DNA from: a virus
Length of the DNA: 62,680 nt
Reading direction: 5' to 3' (one strand)
IMG/VR virus record: IMGVR_UViG_3300050019_000092
Span: 1 to 62,680 of that record
The notes under the pieces were generated by a model, which searched no databases, was not told the origin of the DNA, and saw only the letters and a list, made by a program, of their open reading frames with translations. Shown here in pieces: positions 13,283 through 42,025 of this stretch (its first letter is position 1; every line of letters begins with the position of its first letter). The position numbers were made by a program, and so were the translations under genes.

Positions 13283-14738
13283 TTTCTATTTCATCCGGAG
13301 CGAGAAGGGCGAGCGGATTCCTTTCGCCCGCAATCCTGCACAGCTTGCCTTCTCTCGCGCACTTTGGTCCCGCAATATTATTCCGAAGGCCCGCAAACTC
13401 GGGTTCTCGACTTTCATTGAGTTATTGATTTGCGATGCCTGTGTTTTTAAGGGCGGCACGGTCGCAGGCATTGTAGATCGCTCGCTTGATGATGCGGTCG
13501 ATAAACTCGGGATGATCGCATATGGGTACGATAATCTACCCGAGGAAATCCGCACAAACATCCAACTCACGCGGCGCAATGACAAATATCTGGAATGGTC
13601 GAATGGCTCCAATGTGAGCGTCGGAACGTCCTATCGTGGTGGCACGCCATCGATCCTGCATGTGAGCGAATATGGAAAGATAAGCGTGGACTCGCCGGAG
13701 GCCGCGGTCGAAATCAAAACAGGCGCAATCACCGCTGTACCAATGAGCGGCCAAGTATTTGTTGAGAGCACGTGGCACGGCACTGGCGGTGAATTCTCGA
13801 AGATGACGATGGCTGCCAAGGCGCTACGGGATCGCGGAGCAACTCTCACCGAACTAGATTTTAAGTTTCATTTCTACGGTTGGTGGATGAAGCCAGAATA
13901 TCGGCTTCCGAATAACCTTGTGATTGTCACCCAAGAAATGCAGGAATATTTCCGTGATCTTCAGGCCACGAACGGCATCCTGCTCGATGCTGATCAGATG
14001 GCTTGGTACCAGAATCGATATAGCGACCTCGGGCTCGACAAAACTCACGAGGAGTTTCCATCGACGCCAGAAGAGCTATTTCTTACCTCAAATGAGGGGG
14101 CGTTCTTCAAGCGCGAATTGTCGAAGGCGCGGCAAGAGGGCCGGATTGGGCAGTTAATGCCGTTCGATCCCACTCGGCGGGTCAATACGTTCTGGGATAT
14201 TGGCGAGGATACGACGGCTATTTGGTGGCATCAGACGGATGGTGTTCGTCATCGGCTGATCGACTATTACGAAGAGGAAGGCTGGTCGCTGCAAGGCGCT
14301 TGCGCGATGATCGATGAGAAGCGGCGAACCCGGAAATTTGTTTATGACAAGCACTACGGCCCGCACGATATGGGCAACAAGGATTGGGGCAATAACGCGC
14401 AGACCCGCAAGCAGACAGCGAAGGGGCTCGGGGTTGATATCTCTGTGGTCGAGCGCATTACCGAGAAGGCGGATGCGATTGAGGCTTGTCGGCGCTTTAT
14501 CAATAACTCTTGGTTTGATGCAGAACACTGTTCGCTTGGGGTGGAACGGCTCGAAAACTACCGTAAAAAGTGGAACAAGGCGATTGGGGTTTACACCTCT
14601 GAGCCAGAACACGATCCCGCGAGTCATGGAAGCGATGCCCTAATGTGTGGCGCCTGCGGTCTGGTGCCTGAAAAAGTAAAATCCGAGGATCGTTCGCGCC
14701 GGCCGCAGGAACAAAGGACAACGCAATGGGCGTCATGA
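13179..14738 (+). CDS. terL: Terminase large subunit
   Basis: Carries the ATPase motif IIPKARKLGFSTF and a C-terminal nuclease-type region. A GAGGAAG SD is present. Size is 519 aa. Confidence 0.85.
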   Translation: MLEDGQTIDLDQVRKTTAYQKRKKQWKDRSWRLDNFYFIRSEKGERIPFARNPAQLAFSRALWSRNIIPKARKLGFSTFIELLICDACVFKGGTVAGIVDRSLDDAVDKLGMIAYGYDNLPEEIRTNIQLTRRNDKYLEWSNGSNVSVGTSYRGGTPSILHVSEYGKISVDSPEAAVEIKTGAITAVPMSGQVFVESTWHGTGGEFSKMTMAAKALRDRGATLTELDFKFHFYGWWMKPEYRLPNNLVIVTQEMQEYFRDLQATNGILLDADQMAWYQNRYSDLGLDKTHEEFPSTPEELFLTSNEGAFFKRELSKARQEGRIGQLMPFDPTRRVNTFWDIGEDTTAIWWHQTDGVRHRLIDYYEEEGWSLQGACAMIDEKRRTRKFVYDKHYGPHDMGNKDWGNNAQTRKQTAKGLGVDISVVERITEKADAIEACRRFINNSWFDAEHCSLGVERLENYRKKWNKAIGVYTSEPEHDPASHGSDALMCGACGLVPEKVKSEDRSRRPQEQRTTQWAS

Positions 14739-36574: not shown

Positions 36575-38659
36575 GTGGCGCTTCTTGACCAATATTTCCC
36601 CGGTTCCAATGCCCAGCCGCTGACTGATCCTTCGGCTATGACGCCGGAGATGATCGCCAAGATGGGGTTGCTGGCTCGCCTGTTGCGTGAGCCGCAGGCG
36701 GTTGGTGGGTATGGTGCCGGAACCGGGGCGACGCTTGCTGGCGTTTCGCCGTCGTCCGGTGATCCGCTAAATGGCGACCAGAGCGGGTCCGCTCCGCTGC
36801 CACCGCAAGAGGCATCGATCAATAATCCGAATATGCCGCTTCAGACGCCGACATACGATACGGGGAGCTATTCACCGGCATCGGCCGTGGGTGCGGCGTC
36901 GGCCGTTGGTGACGTCGGGCAGCCCGGTAAGCGTCTCGCTGGCCTGCGTGTTCGGCCCGGCTCGGTGATCGACAACATCATGGATTCGGTCGGGGGTGGC
37001 GCAAACGGCACTGCTGCGGCCGCGCCGGCGCCTGCGGCTTCTGCGACTACGTCACCCATTTCACCGGCTGGAATGGGCTTTGCTGGATTATTGAATGAGC
37101 CGAAAAATGGCGGATTTGATATTCCACCGTCTACAAATGACGTTCAATCCCATCAGCCGCCTGTTTTCAAGGACGGCGTTCCATTGCCTCGCCCGCGGCC
37201 GGATGCTGGCCTGAATGGACGCGATGAGCAGCCCGCTGGTGCGCCATTGTCGCTTGCCCCTCCCAATCCTTCGGATTCCGCCGCCTTGCCTCCTGGTGCC
37301 ACGCCTGCTGGCCCTGCGGCCCCTTCTACGGGCCCCTCTGGTGGGGCATCGCCTATCGGCGATGGGCTCAAATCCGTATTGGGCAACCTTTTTGACCCAA
37401 ATCATGCCGCGACCTGGATGGCGCTGGCATCTGGCTTTGCCGGGGCTCCCAACATCGGGCAGGGCATCTCGCGCGCCTCGGCGGCGGCGGTTCCCGCAAT
37501 CGCGGCGGATCGGGCCAATGCCCTGAAAATGAGCGGGATCACGCAGACATATCAGGCGGTTAGGTCACAATTGATCGCACAAGGCATGGATCCGGCCAAG
37601 GCTGGCATGCAGGCGATCGCCATGGCGCAAAATCCGGAACTGCTCAAATTGGCCGGGCCTAAGATTTTCGGCACGTTGCCGCCGACCGTTCATATGGTCA
37701 CTGATGCATTCGGTGGACAGACGCCGGCCATCTTCGATCCAAACAAAGGGTCTTTTGTCGATGAGAAGGGTCAGCCGACGACCGGGAGCGCTACTCCGGT
37801 CGGTGGCGCTGGCTATCTGGCGAAGGGCGTCCAAGCCGAGGATCAGACGCTTGGCGGTAAGGAATATCTCGATCAGTATTCGCCCGAGGTGCAGGCTTCC
37901 GTGCAGAATTACATCGATGGCAAATCGATGCCGACCGGCAATGCGCGCAAGGGCTGGACGATGAAAATCAAATCGATCGCGCAAAAATATAGCCAGGACA
38001 TGGGCGATCCGGTGGACGACAACACGTTCGCTGCACGCCGGACAATGCGGACCCAGCTTTCCTCGGGTACCCCGGGCTCGGTCGGCGGTCAGCGCAATGC
38101 CGGTCAGGTCATGCTCGGTCATCTGGATACCGTGGCAAATGCTGCTGAGGCCATGGGCAATTGGAATCCTAGTGTTTTCCCTGACCTCGCTCATTGGATC
38201 AATGGAGCCATGCAAAGCGGTTCCACATCGCAGGCAGCAAAGGCAAATGGCCTAAATGATGCTGTGCAGCGATATGTGGCCGAAGTCGAGAAATACTACG
38301 CTGGTGGCGTCGGGGCACAATCCGCTCGCGATGATGCCGAGAAGAGATTTTCTTCGGTCAAAACCCCGGCGGAACTTGCTGCTGCGATCCAGGCCGAGCG
38401 TAGCCTTGGGCAATCGAAACTCAACGTTATCGATGGGCAAATCCGGACCACACTTGGTGAAAAGGGGGCGGCTCAATATCCTTCGATAACGCCAGAAGTT
38501 CAGCAGCACATGAAGAACATCGACGCGACCGTTGCTCGGATGCAGGGCCGCGGTAGTGCGGCTCCCGCCGCGCCGGCCGCGCCGCGCGCCGCGCCGCCTC
38601 CGGGGAATTACGTCTATAGGGGGCCCGGCCAGCCGCTGGTGCCTGCGCCTGCGCAATGA
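36575..38659 (+). CDS. Internal virion protein (694 aa)
   Basis: GTG start after GAGGTG. The N-terminal part is P/A/G-rich and also contains PLSLAPPNP. The C-terminal part is helical. Confidence 0.65.
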   Translation: MALLDQYFPGSNAQPLTDPSAMTPEMIAKMGLLARLLREPQAVGGYGAGTGATLAGVSPSSGDPLNGDQSGSAPLPPQEASINNPNMPLQTPTYDTGSYSPASAVGAASAVGDVGQPGKRLAGLRVRPGSVIDNIMDSVGGGANGTAAAAPAPAASATTSPISPAGMGFAGLLNEPKNGGFDIPPSTNDVQSHQPPVFKDGVPLPRPRPDAGLNGRDEQPAGAPLSLAPPNPSDSAALPPGATPAGPAAPSTGPSGGASPIGDGLKSVLGNLFDPNHAATWMALASGFAGAPNIGQGISRASAAAVPAIAADRANALKMSGITQTYQAVRSQLIAQGMDPAKAGMQAIAMAQNPELLKLAGPKIFGTLPPTVHMVTDAFGGQTPAIFDPNKGSFVDEKGQPTTGSATPVGGAGYLAKGVQAEDQTLGGKEYLDQYSPEVQASVQNYIDGKSMPTGNARKGWTMKIKSIAQKYSQDMGDPVDDNTFAARRTMRTQLSSGTPGSVGGQRNAGQVMLGHLDTVANAAEAMGNWNPSVFPDLAHWINGAMQSGSTSQAAKANGLNDAVQRYVAEVEKYYAGGVGAQSARDDAEKRFSSVKTPAELAAAIQAERSLGQSKLNVIDGQIRTTLGEKGAAQYPSITPEVQQHMKNIDATVARMQGRGSAAPAAPAAPRAAPPPGNYVYRGPGQPLVPAPAQ

Positions 38660-41600
38660 CCATAAACGTTACCGGACCTGACGGCTCCAACATCGCTTTT
38701 CCGGACGGAACTCCGGAAAACGAGATCACCTCTGCGTTGGATGCCCACTATGGCGCGCCGGCGCATCCCGCGGCCGCTGGATTCGATAGGACCGATCCTC
38801 GGTTTTCTGGCGGCGCGATGGCGGGCGAGAAATTCCTCGAGGGCGTTCCTGTCCTCGGCGGTCTTGTTCCCCATGCCGGTGCTGCCATTTCAGCGGTCGC
38901 TCACCCCTTAACTGGCGTTGGCGCTCCGGGCGAGACCGTTGCCGAACGCTATCGGGCCAATCTCGCGGCCGAAAAGGCAGCATCGGCGGAGGCCGATACT
39001 GAGCATCCGGTACTTTCCACTGGCCTGAAAATCGGCGGCGGGGTGGCGTCGTTTGGCGGTGCTCTTAAGGCGGTACCCAAACTTGCCGGCCCGCTTGGCT
39101 TCGAAGGCACCATTCCGCAGATGATTACCAAGGGTGCCGTGTCAGGTGCCGGCCTGAGTGCGGCCGACGCGGCGGTGCGCGGGCAGGATCCCGGGACTGC
39201 AGCCGTTGAGGGTGGCATTCTCGGCAGCGTTGCCGGACCCATCGGCCGTGGCATCGGCAAAGTGGCGGGAGCGGTCATGCGGAGTGGGCGCGGCGCGGCG
39301 CCGCTCGAGCATGCGGTCACCACTCCAGTGGCTGGCGTCGATGTCCCGGTTCCCAGCATGGATCCGGCCGTGCAGTCGCAGATTGAGATTGCCCGCAAGG
39401 GCGCGGCTGGTGTTCCGGCCCAGCAGGTGGTGCAGACTGGTGATGTCGCCAGAGATGCAGCGATCGAGAAGGCCAAGGGCAATATCGGGGCTGGTCTTGA
39501 TCCAAATGCCACCGGCGTGCCGCCCCCGCAGGACAGCGCTGAGACGGTAGCAGCAGAATTGCGGGCCCAAGAGGCCAATCGTTTCCAAACCGAACAGGCG
39601 ACCACCGCTCGGGCAGTACAAGGCACTCAGGAACTGCGGCAAAGCCTTGATACGACCGTGGCACCTCCGGAGGTCATCCAGGCGGCTCATGACGATTTCG
39701 CCAAGTTTGGGGCCAAGAATGCCTTCGTGCCTCAAAAAGCACAGCAAATCAGTGATAAATTTGGCCCTCGGGCTGCCGAAGGCTACACGACCGAGTATGA
39801 TCGGCTGATCGAAGCGAGTCGGCAGGCGCAAGGGAATGTCTCACAAGAAGCAATGCAGCCGGTGCGGGGTGCGCCGCCATCGCCCGAAGCAGCGGTATTG
39901 CCGGGCGTGCCACGCGGCCCAGATGCAGGCGTGGCGCCGGGAACATCCGTTGACCCCGGGGCAGAGATTCAAGGACTCGGCGCGGAGCTACGCGGGGGTT
40001 TACCTGCGGCGGGGCAAATTGAATCGGCAGCCCTGTCAGATATGCGGGGAACTGGACAGCCAAATGCACCATCCGGATTACCGGCAGCCCCTGCTGGTGG
40101 AATGGATGTGCCGCCCCTGTCATCTGGGCTTGCACGCGAAGCAGCCCCCTTGGGTAGCCCCCCCGCCAGCGCAGCAGCCCCCCCAAATCCGGCAACTGTC
40201 CCTGCCATTCATGCAGAGTCCCCCCTAGCCGCTGGGGAAGTGCTCTCGGCTGGCATTCAGCGCAAGGCTGAAGAAGCTGCGGCGAAGCGGACGGCTGCCT
40301 ATGAGGCCAAAGCGCAGATTCCCGGCGAATATGACCCGCGATCGCTCAGGGGTTCCGGCAACGCCATCCGGAATCAATTGAGCAGCGGTCCTATTGAAGA
40401 TCGGGTGAGCGTAAATTCGACGACGCCTAATTCATCGGCCGCCCTACAATTGATCGACGAGACCATTGGCGGCAAGCCTCCGGCTGTTCTGCCGAATGAG
40501 GCTACGCCTTTCACCGCAATCCGCGGCGAGGGTGGAAAATTCGAGAGTGGACAGGTTCCCGAACCGATCACCGGACAGACGATGGAGGGTGTGCGTAAGG
40601 CACTCAATCGGCTCTATTCGAACGCCAATCGGGCGGCCAATAGCCCGGGCGGAAGCGCTGAGGATTTGCGCGGCATGAAGCGCATAATCGATGCTTTCGA
40701 CACTCATATTTCAACTGTCGAGGATGCTGGTGGCTTCTCAGGCGATGCCGATGCTTTGGCAAAGGCTCGGCTTGCCGCGCGTGCGGCGCATGCGGATTAT
40801 AAGCAGACCTTCACGCCTCAAGGTCGTGGCGACAAAGTAGGCGCGAGCATAGAGAAGATCATTGGTCGCTTCGATGGGCAGGAAGCTGGTGCCGATCAGG
40901 TTTCGCAGATGGCCTATGGCTCACCTGCGGAACCCGGCGGGACGCCAGCAGCCCAATTGGCGCAGCGGATCAAGTCCATCTTCGGTGAGAATTCGAAGGA
41001 GTGGGCGGCTTATAAACAGGGTCTTTTATCGCATCTCGTCGATAATCCAGACGGCACGCCTCGGGCCGCTGCCGACGCGGCCATGCGCATCGATAAATTC
41101 CTAAAGGCTCCGAAGGGGAAAATTCTATCGCAGGTGGCTCTCACATCTGATGATCGTGCTGCTTTGGCGAATCACGCCGAGACTTTGCGCGCGTCTACTC
41201 CGGTTGCTTTCAAGGATCTGGACAGCCCGAACAAGATCATCGGTCGAATTACCGGCCGCGATGGCGGCCCGCTTCCGTCTCTCAATGAGGTGACCGATCT
41301 GTTGATGGGCCCGGGCGATAAGGCGACGCTGATCTCGACTCTCAAGCGCACGCTGTCGAAGGATGGATTCAATGCCCTGCGCGTTGGCATGTGGAACAAG
41401 ACTATCGGCGTGACCGAGGGCAAAACCGATCTTTCGCCGAAGCGCCTGTCCGACAATATCTTCGAGTTGCTCAATGGCTCGCGCAGTGCCACCGCGCAGG
41501 CTCTCTATTCGTCGGCGGAGCGGACTGAAATGCTGCGGCTGGCGCAGGCGATCAAGATGCATATTCCGCTGCCGGGCACGACCAATCCATCGGGGACTGC

Positions 41601-41865
41601 TCCGATGCTGACCAAGATTGCCGGTAAGGCAGCGGAGGGCATCCTTCCGCTGGCCGGGCTCATGCATGGTGGTATCCCCGGTGCCATCGTGGGTGCTGTA
41701 GCCAATAAGGGCGTGACCGCGGCGCGCAATGCGAGCGCTGCAAGGCGAATCGGTTCGTTGTATTACGGTGAGCAGCCGAAGATTCCGGTTGATCCGCGGT
41801 TTGCTCGAGCGGCTGCTATCGCCGCTCGCGGCGTTCAGCAGGGCCAAGTCGGTAGTGGTCCCTAA
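38656..41865 (+). CDS. Large internal virion protein (1069 aa)
   Basis: ATGA overlap start. The call rests on size and position before the transglycosylase and tail fibres. Confidence 0.7.
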   Translation: MTINVTGPDGSNIAFPDGTPENEITSALDAHYGAPAHPAAAGFDRTDPRFSGGAMAGEKFLEGVPVLGGLVPHAGAAISAVAHPLTGVGAPGETVAERYRANLAAEKAASAEADTEHPVLSTGLKIGGGVASFGGALKAVPKLAGPLGFEGTIPQMITKGAVSGAGLSAADAAVRGQDPGTAAVEGGILGSVAGPIGRGIGKVAGAVMRSGRGAAPLEHAVTTPVAGVDVPVPSMDPAVQSQIEIARKGAAGVPAQQVVQTGDVARDAAIEKAKGNIGAGLDPNATGVPPPQDSAETVAAELRAQEANRFQTEQATTARAVQGTQELRQSLDTTVAPPEVIQAAHDDFAKFGAKNAFVPQKAQQISDKFGPRAAEGYTTEYDRLIEASRQAQGNVSQEAMQPVRGAPPSPEAAVLPGVPRGPDAGVAPGTSVDPGAEIQGLGAELRGGLPAAGQIESAALSDMRGTGQPNAPSGLPAAPAGGMDVPPLSSGLAREAAPLGSPPASAAAPPNPATVPAIHAESPLAAGEVLSAGIQRKAEEAAAKRTAAYEAKAQIPGEYDPRSLRGSGNAIRNQLSSGPIEDRVSVNSTTPNSSAALQLIDETIGGKPPAVLPNEATPFTAIRGEGGKFESGQVPEPITGQTMEGVRKALNRLYSNANRAANSPGGSAEDLRGMKRIIDAFDTHISTVEDAGGFSGDADALAKARLAARAAHADYKQTFTPQGRGDKVGASIEKIIGRFDGQEAGADQVSQMAYGSPAEPGGTPAAQLAQRIKSIFGENSKEWAAYKQGLLSHLVDNPDGTPRAAADAAMRIDKFLKAPKGKILSQVALTSDDRAALANHAETLRASTPVAFKDLDSPNKIIGRITGRDGGPLPSLNEVTDLLMGPGDKATLISTLKRTLSKDGFNALRVGMWNKTIGVTEGKTDLSPKRLSDNIFELLNGSRSATAQALYSSAERTEMLRLAQAIKMHIPLPGTTNPSGTAPMLTKIAGKAAEGILPLAGLMHGGIPGAIVGAVANKGVTAARNASAARRIGSLYYGEQPKIPVDPRFARAAAIAARGVQQGQVGSGP
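39836..40228 (+). CDS. Embedded +1-frame ORF: zinc-ribbon / His-Me-finger (HNH-like) protein, 130 aa
   Basis: Four CxxC pairs (CSRC, CRAC, CQIC, CRPC) plus HH...CRPCHLGLH. By hand count, G/C at third positions is about 81% in this frame versus about 50% in the host frame. Confidence 0.55.
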   Translation: MSHKKQCSRCGVRRHRPKQRYCRACHAAQMQAWRREHPLTPGQRFKDSARSYAGVYLRRGKLNRQPCQICGELDSQMHHPDYRQPLLVEWMCRPCHLGLHAKQPPWVAPPPAQQPPQIRQLSLPFMQSPP

Positions 41866-42025
41866 TCCTCAAGCCGTATCCCACGGCGAGGACTCCCAAT
41901 AGAATAATTCCGGCGGTGTATGTGCCGACCCAGCCGACGAATGCCGGGATGATGTGAAGGCGTAGCGTAATTATCACGCCGAGAAATGTGACGACCATCG
42001 CGAGTTTAAGGGGAAATGGGATCAT
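41816..42025 (-). CDS. Antisense small two-TM membrane protein (69 aa)
   Basis: Hand translation is MIPFPLKLAMVVTFLGVIITLRLHIIPAFVGWVGTYTAGIILLGVLAVGYGL. It fills an otherwise non-coding 158-nt gap. Confidence 0.4.
   Translation of the reverse strand: MIPFPLKLAMVVTFLGVIITLRLHIIPAFVGWVGTYTAGIILLGVLAVGYGLRIRDHYRLGPAERRERR

Follow-up and report, generated by a model that had tools for sequence, protein, structure and literature searches.

Homing endonuclease genes are usually thought to survive in essential genes only by means of a self-splicing intron or an intein. Another arrangement has been described in actinophages, where the 'ShiLan domain' and the insertion in gp60 of phage Pacc40 are HNH genes that lie out of frame within methylase genes, the host frame reading through them (Arsenault, Gosselin and Gogarten 2025, PMC11855218). 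Such hidden insertions had been described earlier (PMC9957025). Neither the ShiLan nor the Pacc40 insertion bears the signature of an intron or intein or has a ribosome-binding site, and the product of the host frame is disordered in both (PMC11855218). In the present study we analyzed a viral genome sequence of 62,680 nucleotides, IMG/VR record IMGVR_UViG_3300050019_000092, positions 1 to 62,680. This whole stretch is called the window hereafter, and coordinates given without a locus number refer to it. It contains an open reading frame (ORF) of 130 codons embedded in the +1 frame of a gene for a protein of 1069 amino acids (aa). The original prediction for this locus had proposed either that both frames are expressed or that a small nuclease gene was inserted into a tolerant linker and is now read through with neither intron nor intein. 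Our results favour the second proposal: the embedded ORF is probably a homing-endonuclease gene of the free-standing type, inserted into the host coding sequence and read through in the other frame. Since this reading implies dual coding, the first proposal is supported with it. The locus comprises the following features.

38656..41865, + strand: host gene, uninterrupted in the ORF list, 1069 aa, a modular protein assigned to the virion or ejection-protein module from its neighbours
39836..40228, + strand: embedded ORF, ATG start, 130 codons and a TAG stop, +1 frame relative to the host gene
39836..40141, + strand: conserved nuclease core, aa 1-102, delimited by the family alignment and the predicted structure
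40139..40228, + strand: run-on tail at the end of the embedded ORF, aa 102-130, which covers native linker of the host
39829..40138, + strand: element-specific segment of 310 nucleotides (nt), delimited by blastn of the window against locus L003
39841..40209, + strand: host-frame read-through peptide, host aa 396-518, rich in proline, alanine and glycine (P/A/G-rich) and predicted to be disordered

The locus resembles the ShiLan and Pacc40 insertions in many respects. In both cases an HNH-type ORF occupies an alternative frame of the insertion while the host frame is stop-free throughout, and close homologues differ in whether they carry the insertion. The lack of an intron or intein signature and of a recognisable ribosome-binding site is also shared, as are a host-frame product predicted to be disordered or looped out and a related free-standing copy elsewhere. 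On the other hand, the nuclease has about 100 aa here versus 160-195 aa there, and it lies in the +1 frame and not in the +2 or 'third' frame. Its host is a large protein, putatively of the virion module, of a podovirus-like phage, in contrast to a dispensable methylase of temperate mycobacteriophages, and its site is a variable linker at a module junction in place of a conserved motif. The present case extends this recently described and thinly documented arrangement to a new nuclease family, relative frame and host-gene class. It adds frame-specific ratios of nonsynonymous to synonymous substitution rates (dN/dS), stop-avoidance statistics and a decayed, frame-preserving remnant. Within the literature searched, this is the first frame-specific selection evidence for such an insertion that we know of. 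The original prediction held that the arrangement would be unusual for a phage structural gene. It is indeed rare, but the hidden HNH genes of the actinophage methylases provide a precedent (PMC11855218).

For a direct comparison, the hidden ORF of Pacc40 gp60 was re-found at the DNA level (L073 7866 onward, about 41865 in the record; frame +2, 159 aa). It carries an HNH_3-like 'IDRIDNDGNYEPGNCRW' motif. The profile of our nuclease family alignment, A2, gave -2.1 bits against this alternative-frame ORF (E=2.3), which is not significant. Kinship with Pacc40, the only one of these insertions compared by sequence, thus appears to be one of arrangement and not of sequence family. RefSeq names Pacc40 gp60 'anaerobic ribonucleoside reductase large subunit' and adds 'DNA methylase N-4' as a note.

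Other known systems share some of these traits. Free-standing homing genes of phages, such as the seg and mob genes of T4 and HNH genes between structural genes, are likewise small nuclease genes with a sporadic distribution among related phages. They sit between genes or split a gene in two, as in nrdA and gene 43 of phage Aeh1, whereas here the host ORF is whole and would be translated through the element. Homing endonucleases of inteins and group I introns similarly lie inside an intact protein gene and are patchily distributed, but no splicing is detectable here and the insert simply adds residues to the host-frame product. In phage lambda, Rz1 is a complete +1-frame gene wholly inside Rz; both are translated and their products are functionally coupled. 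The geometry of a complete small gene in the +1 frame of a larger phage gene is the same in our case. Here, however, the inner gene appears to be mobile and imported, and it has homologues that stand alone; the outer frame is no more than unconstrained filler across it.

The embedded ORF and its nuclease family

The ORF list contains both the uninterrupted 38656..41865 frame and the 130-codon ORF that opens at the ATG at 39836 in the +1 frame, as originally described. The four CxxC pairs of its translation (CSRC, CRAC, CQIC and CRPC) and the stretch SQMHHPDYRQPLLVEWMCRPCHLGLH are present exactly as reported. A homologue search with the 130-aa translation, suggested at the time as a check, was clearly positive. 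The ORF matches phrog_2340 'endonuclease' (E=4.8e-13, residues 13-103 on profile positions 71-163 of 171) and phrog_2255 'HNH endonuclease' (E=1e-4). A tblastn search with the embedded protein matched 243 phage records, many of which are annotated 'endonuclease'. The called proteins include 44 matches with 50-69% identity and E between 1e-20 and 2e-34. A length of about 100 aa is frequent among them, and no Pfam domain is recorded for any. Most family members are free-standing, in varied gene contexts, and L006, L007 and L070-L072 were confirmed at the DNA level to lie amid ordinary phage genes. These free-standing homologues stop at the end of the core, around residue 102 (L007 has 99 aa). 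The run-on tail of the window copy is absent from them and from the embedded copies of L002 and L008, and it shows 86% nucleotide identity to the nuclease-less L003. The TAG that ends the embedded ORF (40226-40228) falls within the conserved 'ESPLAA' codons of the host.

The family alignment A2 comprises 36 sequences. The window copy retains 13/13 invariant and all near-invariant positions, including C67, C70, H78, H79, C92, H96 and H100; H78, H79 and H96 are invariant and H100 is near-invariant. An AlphaFold2 model of the core made with A2 has a mean predicted local distance difference test score (pLDDT) of 93.9. It consists of two helices followed by strands 76-78 and 89-91 and helix 93-101, which together form a beta-beta-alpha unit of the layout seen in His-Me-finger nucleases. 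Searched with Foldseek against the predicted viral structures of BFVD, the model gave 11 matches at E<=1e-3 (2e-8 to 7e-4). Some of these are labelled 'recombination endonuclease VII', and 'HNHc domain' containing proteins were matched at E 1.5e-4 and 3.5e-4. A Pfam search with the 36 family members gave no consistent family, one of them matching PF01844 with E=0.045. The PHROG labels, the motif layout and the BFVD fold matches make the label of HNH nuclease a well-motivated, if model-based, one. We can predict that the embedded protein is a His-Me-finger (HNH-like) endonuclease of about 100 aa with two zinc sites. Its eight cysteines in four CxxC pairs and its beta-beta-alpha unit with HH...H recall the N-terminal region of T4 endonuclease VII and PacI-like enzymes, and some of its homologues are annotated 'endonuclease VII' or 'PacI'. 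However, no solved structure is matched significantly, and the relation is one of label and motif.

A chance ORF in G+C-rich DNA can be rejected given the highly significant homologues (phrog_2340, the 243 records and the 44 proteins). A gene overprinted de novo can be rejected as well, given the many free-standing homologues outside any overlap. In a nearest-neighbour analysis, pairs within the family were all 55-68% identical, and the tree is star-like, so that vertical descent and homing cannot be separated by it. The best cultured-phage match to the nuclease core is found in Bradyrhizobium phage ppBeUSDA76-2 (L001 5992-6321, record 13981-14160; 51.7% identity over 60 aa). It lies in an unannotated gap between hypothetical genes of the GenBank record and is apparently free-standing.

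Presence, absence and decay of the insertion

An intact +1-frame nuclease was found in only three alleles of the host gene, at the same place in each: those of the window, L002 (P0004) and L008 (P0007). The L002 and L008 copies have 116 and 102 aa and show 63-68% identity to the window copy (BLAST). When the nine closest host homologues are aligned, the region from the helix '...LRQSLDTS/T' to 'IHAESPLAA' is hypervariable. In L005 the two anchors are joined by a P/A linker of 45 residues without any trace of a nuclease, which is also absent from P0005, P0006, P0008 and others among the closest homologues. A search of 56 further loci of host relatives, from viral and metagenome contigs, found no nuclease copy. 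Most homologues of the large protein thus lack the segment, as the insertion proposal had anticipated.

The host protein family itself is modular, with a shared N-terminal module of about 330 residues followed by either of two C-terminal modules. One is the window type and the other is ddrB-ParB (PF18763), which is found in P0006, P0007, P0010, P0013-15 and P0029 and in L008 and L009. The nuclease is located exactly at the point where the N- and C-terminal modules are exchanged. The L008 host protein runs on into a C-terminal module of the ddrB-ParB type, and P0006 has this module without the insert; that a different C-terminal module follows the insert in L008 places the insert at the module junction. 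Directly 5' of the insert lies a further host block:

39664..39834, + strand: extra helical host block, aa 337-393 (57 residues), from alignments; pLDDT 76-84

This block is common to the window and L003/L004 only, and absent from L002 and L005. It represents a second indel at the same place, and the junction is an indel hot spot.

The closest relative of the window is L003/L004 (P0002). Its left homology, 25/29 nt identical, ends at 39828, and its right homology resumes at 40139 with 86% identity. Between these points it carries a shortened remnant:

L003 7204-7309 (also in L004): decayed nuclease remnant, 106 nt where the window has 310 nt

Within it, L003 7245-7265 is a 19/21-nt relic of the 'DYRQPLL' codons, and the +1 frame is interrupted by stops. 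The difference of 204 nt corresponds to 68 codons, a multiple of 3, so the host frame is intact in the decayed allele too. Such a sporadic distribution together with a degenerate copy is what is expected of a homing gene passing through a cycle of invasion, decay and loss. A further protein, P0079 (105 aa, running to the end of its contig), is 70% identical to the host-frame read-through peptide over query residues 2-57. It probably represents another insert-bearing allele; its upstream part is unlike the window host protein.

Splicing elements were considered and rejected. An Rfam search of 38500-42000 at permissive thresholds (E<=1) found no intron family. The element-specific segment nearly equals the nuclease core and leaves no room for a ribozyme, which together with the Rfam result speaks against a group I or group II intron. 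Inteins carry an N-terminal Cys, Ser or Thr and a C-terminal His-Asn followed by Cys, Ser or Thr. No Hint or other Pfam domain was detected in the insert, whose host-frame translation, 'GNVSQEAMQ...GLAREA', ends without the residues of an intein and is modelled with pLDDT around 30.

Selection in the two reading frames

In the flanks of the insert, differences between the window and L002 fall mostly at position 3 of the host codons (e.g. 3/1/26 for positions 1/2/3), and the host dN/dS is 0.21 upstream and 0.18 downstream (520 codons). In the overlap the mismatches move to host position 1, which is position 3 of the nuclease codons (14/6/5 in the best-conserved bin). For three allele pairs the dN/dS of the overlap is 0.38-0.45 in the nuclease frame and 0.94-1.14 in the host frame; over all estimates the host-frame value of the read-through peptide is 0.8-1.1. 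The host-frame dS drops from about 1.4 in the flanks to about 0.37 in the overlap, a collapse that classically points to a second functional frame. Of the single-base changes that are silent in one frame but not in the other, 74 are silent in the nuclease frame and 63 in the host frame (share expected from mutation 0.42, p=0.003; the three allele pairs are not independent). The nuclease protein is conserved and the host-frame peptide over it drifts freely, in line with the insertion proposal, for which a frame-specific analysis had been suggested. It is worth noting that conservation between two insert-bearing genomes extends over the 520 downstream codons. These codons must therefore be translated, which requires read-through of the insert.

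The G+C contents at third codon positions estimated by hand in the original prediction (about 81% in the first 100 codons of the embedded frame, about 50% in the host frame and roughly two-thirds in the flanks) were reproduced by computation as 0.81, 0.50 and 0.63. The counts hold, but the stronger coding signature then attributed to the embedded frame is not decisive on composition alone. The third-position G+C ('GC3') of the +1 frame is 0.72-0.83 along the entire upstream flank, as the first host codon position is G+C-rich there, and it is therefore a weak diagnostic by itself.

Recurrence in other host genes

The host-frame peptide (window 39835-40155) was searched against 1.84 billion representative proteins; 14 were returned, and the DNA was fetched for four. 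As ascertainment was through called proteins, frequencies of embedding cannot be deduced from these data. In each of the four fetched loci (L010-L013), an intact nuclease of this family lies in the +1 frame of a host gene that is otherwise unrelated and whose own frame is open across the nuclease core.

L010 1920-2366: embedded nuclease, host is a TPR/glycosyltransferase-like protein
L011 4443-4772: embedded nuclease, host is a phage MptE-like protein
L012 3968-4282: embedded nuclease, host is an ART-PolyVal protein of 2340 aa
L013 4619-4954: embedded nuclease, host is an InPase protein of 1284 aa

For the L010 host, the closest homologues, at 56-60% identity, run uninterrupted through the site and are shorter there by about 170 residues. 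The embedding of this nuclease family in the +1 frame is clearly not a one-off; with the window's host gene included, it is seen in five or more unrelated host genes.

The open host frame and its product

For a stop codon to arise in the host frame, a nuclease codon with T at its third position must be followed by one that begins with AA, AG or GA. Every T-ending codon has a synonymous alternative ending in C, so an open host frame costs the nuclease protein nothing. When the nuclease was resampled synonymously, with codons drawn by the phage's own usage, the host frame was open in 0.5-4% of the samples per copy and 2.6-4.2 stops were expected (window, L002 and L008). It is actually open in all three. 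Over the seven embedded copies a T-ending codon stands before an AA, AG or GA codon in 0/122 cases, versus 84/421 elsewhere (p=6e-11). Four of these seven (L010-L013) were found by the host-frame-peptide search, which presupposes an open frame. Among full-length free-standing homologues, 4/5 have 1-9 stops in the -1 frame and the fifth, L072, has none; openness is thus not a property of the family. The L072 copy (2501-2806) is a G+C-rich free-standing homologue located between a DUF932 gene and a terminase gene. Its stop-free -1 frame may be due to chance, or the copy may recently have come out of a coding context or be able to enter one. The remaining alternative frame is interrupted by three stops in every embedded copy, and in L002 and L008 it was open in 0/20,000 resamplings of the protein sequence. 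The -1 frame of the nuclease is the sole frame that lets the host gene pass at no cost to the nuclease protein.

That the host-frame peptide over the embedded ORF is P/A/G-rich was readily seen, as originally noted. In an AlphaFold2 model of the 1069-aa protein (overall pLDDT 58), residues 396-518 have a pLDDT of 27-32 and no secondary structure. They are sharply bracketed by helices 371-398 and 523-553 with pLDDT 76-89. The underlying alignment has 9 sequences, and other segments of the model are of low confidence as well. The model is supportive only, and suggests that the read-through peptide may be a floppy loop within an already variable linker.

How the nuclease could be translated

The ATG at the N-terminus of the family is kept in all seven embedded copies. 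In the window it lies in a weakly folded region:

39806..39865, + strand: 60 nt around the embedded ATG, minimum free energy -9.8 kcal/mol versus a gene mean of -18.4

This region belongs to the least-folded 3.2% of segments (z=+1.4 versus shuffles). For five of the seven embedded starts, the 60 nt around the ATG are within the least-folded 0.6-3% of segments of their host gene (Fisher combined p=5e-5). Internal initiation at 39836, independent of a Shine-Dalgarno motif, would most likely be the most economical way to produce the nuclease.

Origin and role of the insertion

The free-standing homologues, the indel, the frame-specific selection, the open host frame and the lack of a splicing signal agree with the proposal of an inserted nuclease gene that is read through with neither intron nor intein. 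We envisage the following scheme, of which nuclease translation, nuclease activity and homing are the parts that we infer. A homing-endonuclease gene of the free-standing type would have entered the coding region for a large modular protein, presumably of the virion or ejection module, at a disordered linker that joins a conserved N-terminal to an exchangeable C-terminal module. Neither an intron nor an intein would be needed, the host frame being the stop-free -1 frame of the nuclease. Ribosomes on the host gene would pass through the element, adding a floppy P/A/G-rich loop of some 100-120 residues, and would then continue in register into the essential C-terminal part. The nuclease would be made separately and at low level, by internal initiation at the ATG at 39836 in unusually unstructured mRNA. 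Its role would be selfish: by cleaving insert-free alleles of related co-infecting phages it would be copied into them during repair, and the element might afterwards decay and be lost on occasion.

Several observations weigh against this reading. No Shine-Dalgarno motif was found at normal spacing before the ATG in the seven embedded copies, and a scan of 39300-40500 for promoters and terminators gave no consensus. The nuclease dN/dS of about 0.4 indicates only moderate constraint. In the PDB, sequence and profile searches yielded nothing beyond zinc-ribbon proteins of the ribosome and a single Cascade-HNH alignment that was not significant, and Foldseek with the nuclease model found nothing below E=0.4 there. 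Searched against Pfam and NCBIfam, the 130-aa protein gave only sub-threshold zinc-ribbon noise and no HNH match. The way in which L010-L013 were found and the small alignment behind the host-protein model belong here as well. The three insert-bearing alleles are mutually closest nuclease relatives, and their patchy distribution could reflect one old insertion followed by losses and not ongoing homing. Some of these points would fit a relic, inserted once, in which the nuclease is no longer expressed and slowly decays, with translation confined to the host frame and the segment acting as a mere linker. Besides the missing Shine-Dalgarno motif and promoter consensus and the moderate dN/dS, the decayed copy in L003/L004 and the 28-codon run-on tail of the window ORF can be read in this way. 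We nevertheless consider a relic unlikely, since three lineages that are 32-38% apart in the nuclease protein all keep the ORF, its ATG and the catalytic-type His and Cys residues. A host-frame dN/dS of about 1 also shows that it is not the linker peptide that is constrained, and the start region is unusually unstructured.

Long retention in three diverged genomes under purifying selection could also point to a domesticated nuclease, expressed not for its own spread but to serve the phage, by degrading competing phage or host DNA or by processing the genome. Phage HNH proteins have several roles other than homing (PMC11855218). However, a gene that the large majority of relatives lack and that has decayed in one lineage behaves like a dispensable selfish element. 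Nucleases of this family occur in unrelated genes (TPR/glycosyltransferase-like, MptE-like, ART-PolyVal and InPase) and in varied free-standing contexts, and such a service to the phage seems improbable to us. Alternatively, a programmed +1 frameshift might join the nuclease to the N-terminal 390 or so residues of the host protein, the fusion being delivered with the virion protein. In its favour, no ribosome-binding site was found, the +1 frame of L002 and L008 stays open over a long distance 5' of the ATG, and injected polyvalent proteins often bear nuclease modules according to the literature on them. Against this, the +1 frame is closed by a stop shortly before the ATG, 9 codons upstream in the window (TGA at 39806-39808), 7 in L012 and 17 in L013. 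No common slippery motif was seen, and the ATG conserved at the family N-terminus in all copies would be needless for a fusion, which makes this alternative very unlikely. There is hardly any probability left for an artefact in which the long ORF is really two genes flanking a nuclease gene, or in which the embedded ORF arose by chance. It is true that dozens of long spurious ORFs are listed in this G+C-rich DNA and that the third-position G+C of the +1 frame is high along the upstream flank. But no stop interrupts the host frame in three independent assemblies, homologues without the insert consist of one contiguous ORF each, matches to the embedded ORF are highly significant, and the deletion derivative L003 retains the host frame.

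Implications

Plain read-through in another frame would constitute a third route, besides intron and intein, for the survival of homing endonuclease genes in essential genes, and the present case adds to the one computational paper on phage methylases (PMC11855218). This route would work in a large gene of the putative virion module whose downstream part is under purifying selection, and would be stable across deep divergence. Gene callers overlook such embedded nucleases: all seven copies are annotated only within the long host protein. The 'low-complexity linkers' to which they give rise would then be by-products of translation and not evolved domains. A rule for their detection follows, namely to search the -1-frame translation of a known nuclease family against called proteins. 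The system could also be tractable for studying how internal genes without a Shine-Dalgarno motif get translated.

A bolder and tentative idea, which we think possible but would not favour at present, is that this family of about 100 aa with two zinc sites is a specialised 'read-through' homing element that colonises disordered linkers of coding sequences with its -1 frame kept stop-free. If so, the element would pay only with synonymous T-to-C choices, and introns and inteins would be dispensable. The colonised linkers would be those of large injected or polyvalent phage proteins (the window family, ART-PolyVal and InPase) and of other ORFs (TPR/glycosyltransferase-like and MptE-like). Double-strand breaks at module junctions could then drive the shuffling of C-terminal modules.

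Host gene and genome setting

The window phage has a podovirus-like genome that encodes a portal, a major head protein, an ejection-protein-like gene product, an SLT transglycosylase and fibres. Its major head protein is 52% identical to the counterpart of Rhizobium phage RHph_Y1_10, and the phage is related to alphaproteobacterial phages. The gene order of the window includes the following genes, given by position.

22222: portal gene
26372: major head protein gene
34762: 'DNA ejection protein' gene
41988: SLT transglycosylase gene
42786: tail-fibre-like gene

The description of the 1069-aa product as an internal virion protein is consistent with this order, from which its assignment to the virion or ejection module is drawn. 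Neither a nucleotide search of cultured phages with the host gene nor a tblastn search of them with the C-terminal half of its protein gave a match, so that no annotated relative among cultured phages backs the name and 'internal virion protein' stays a reading of gene order. A Pfam scan of the 1069-aa protein found no domain at all. The protein collection contained 33 relatives of it (P0002-P0034).

In the window the SLT transglycosylase and tail-fibre-like genes abut (42776/42786), with no gene between them. In relatives, extra free-standing HNH genes (PF01844, PF13392) lie amid the structural genes, for instance between the SLT and the collar/fibre genes; they were seen in L002 (3192-3848 and 10169-10684) and in L003 (9983-10492).

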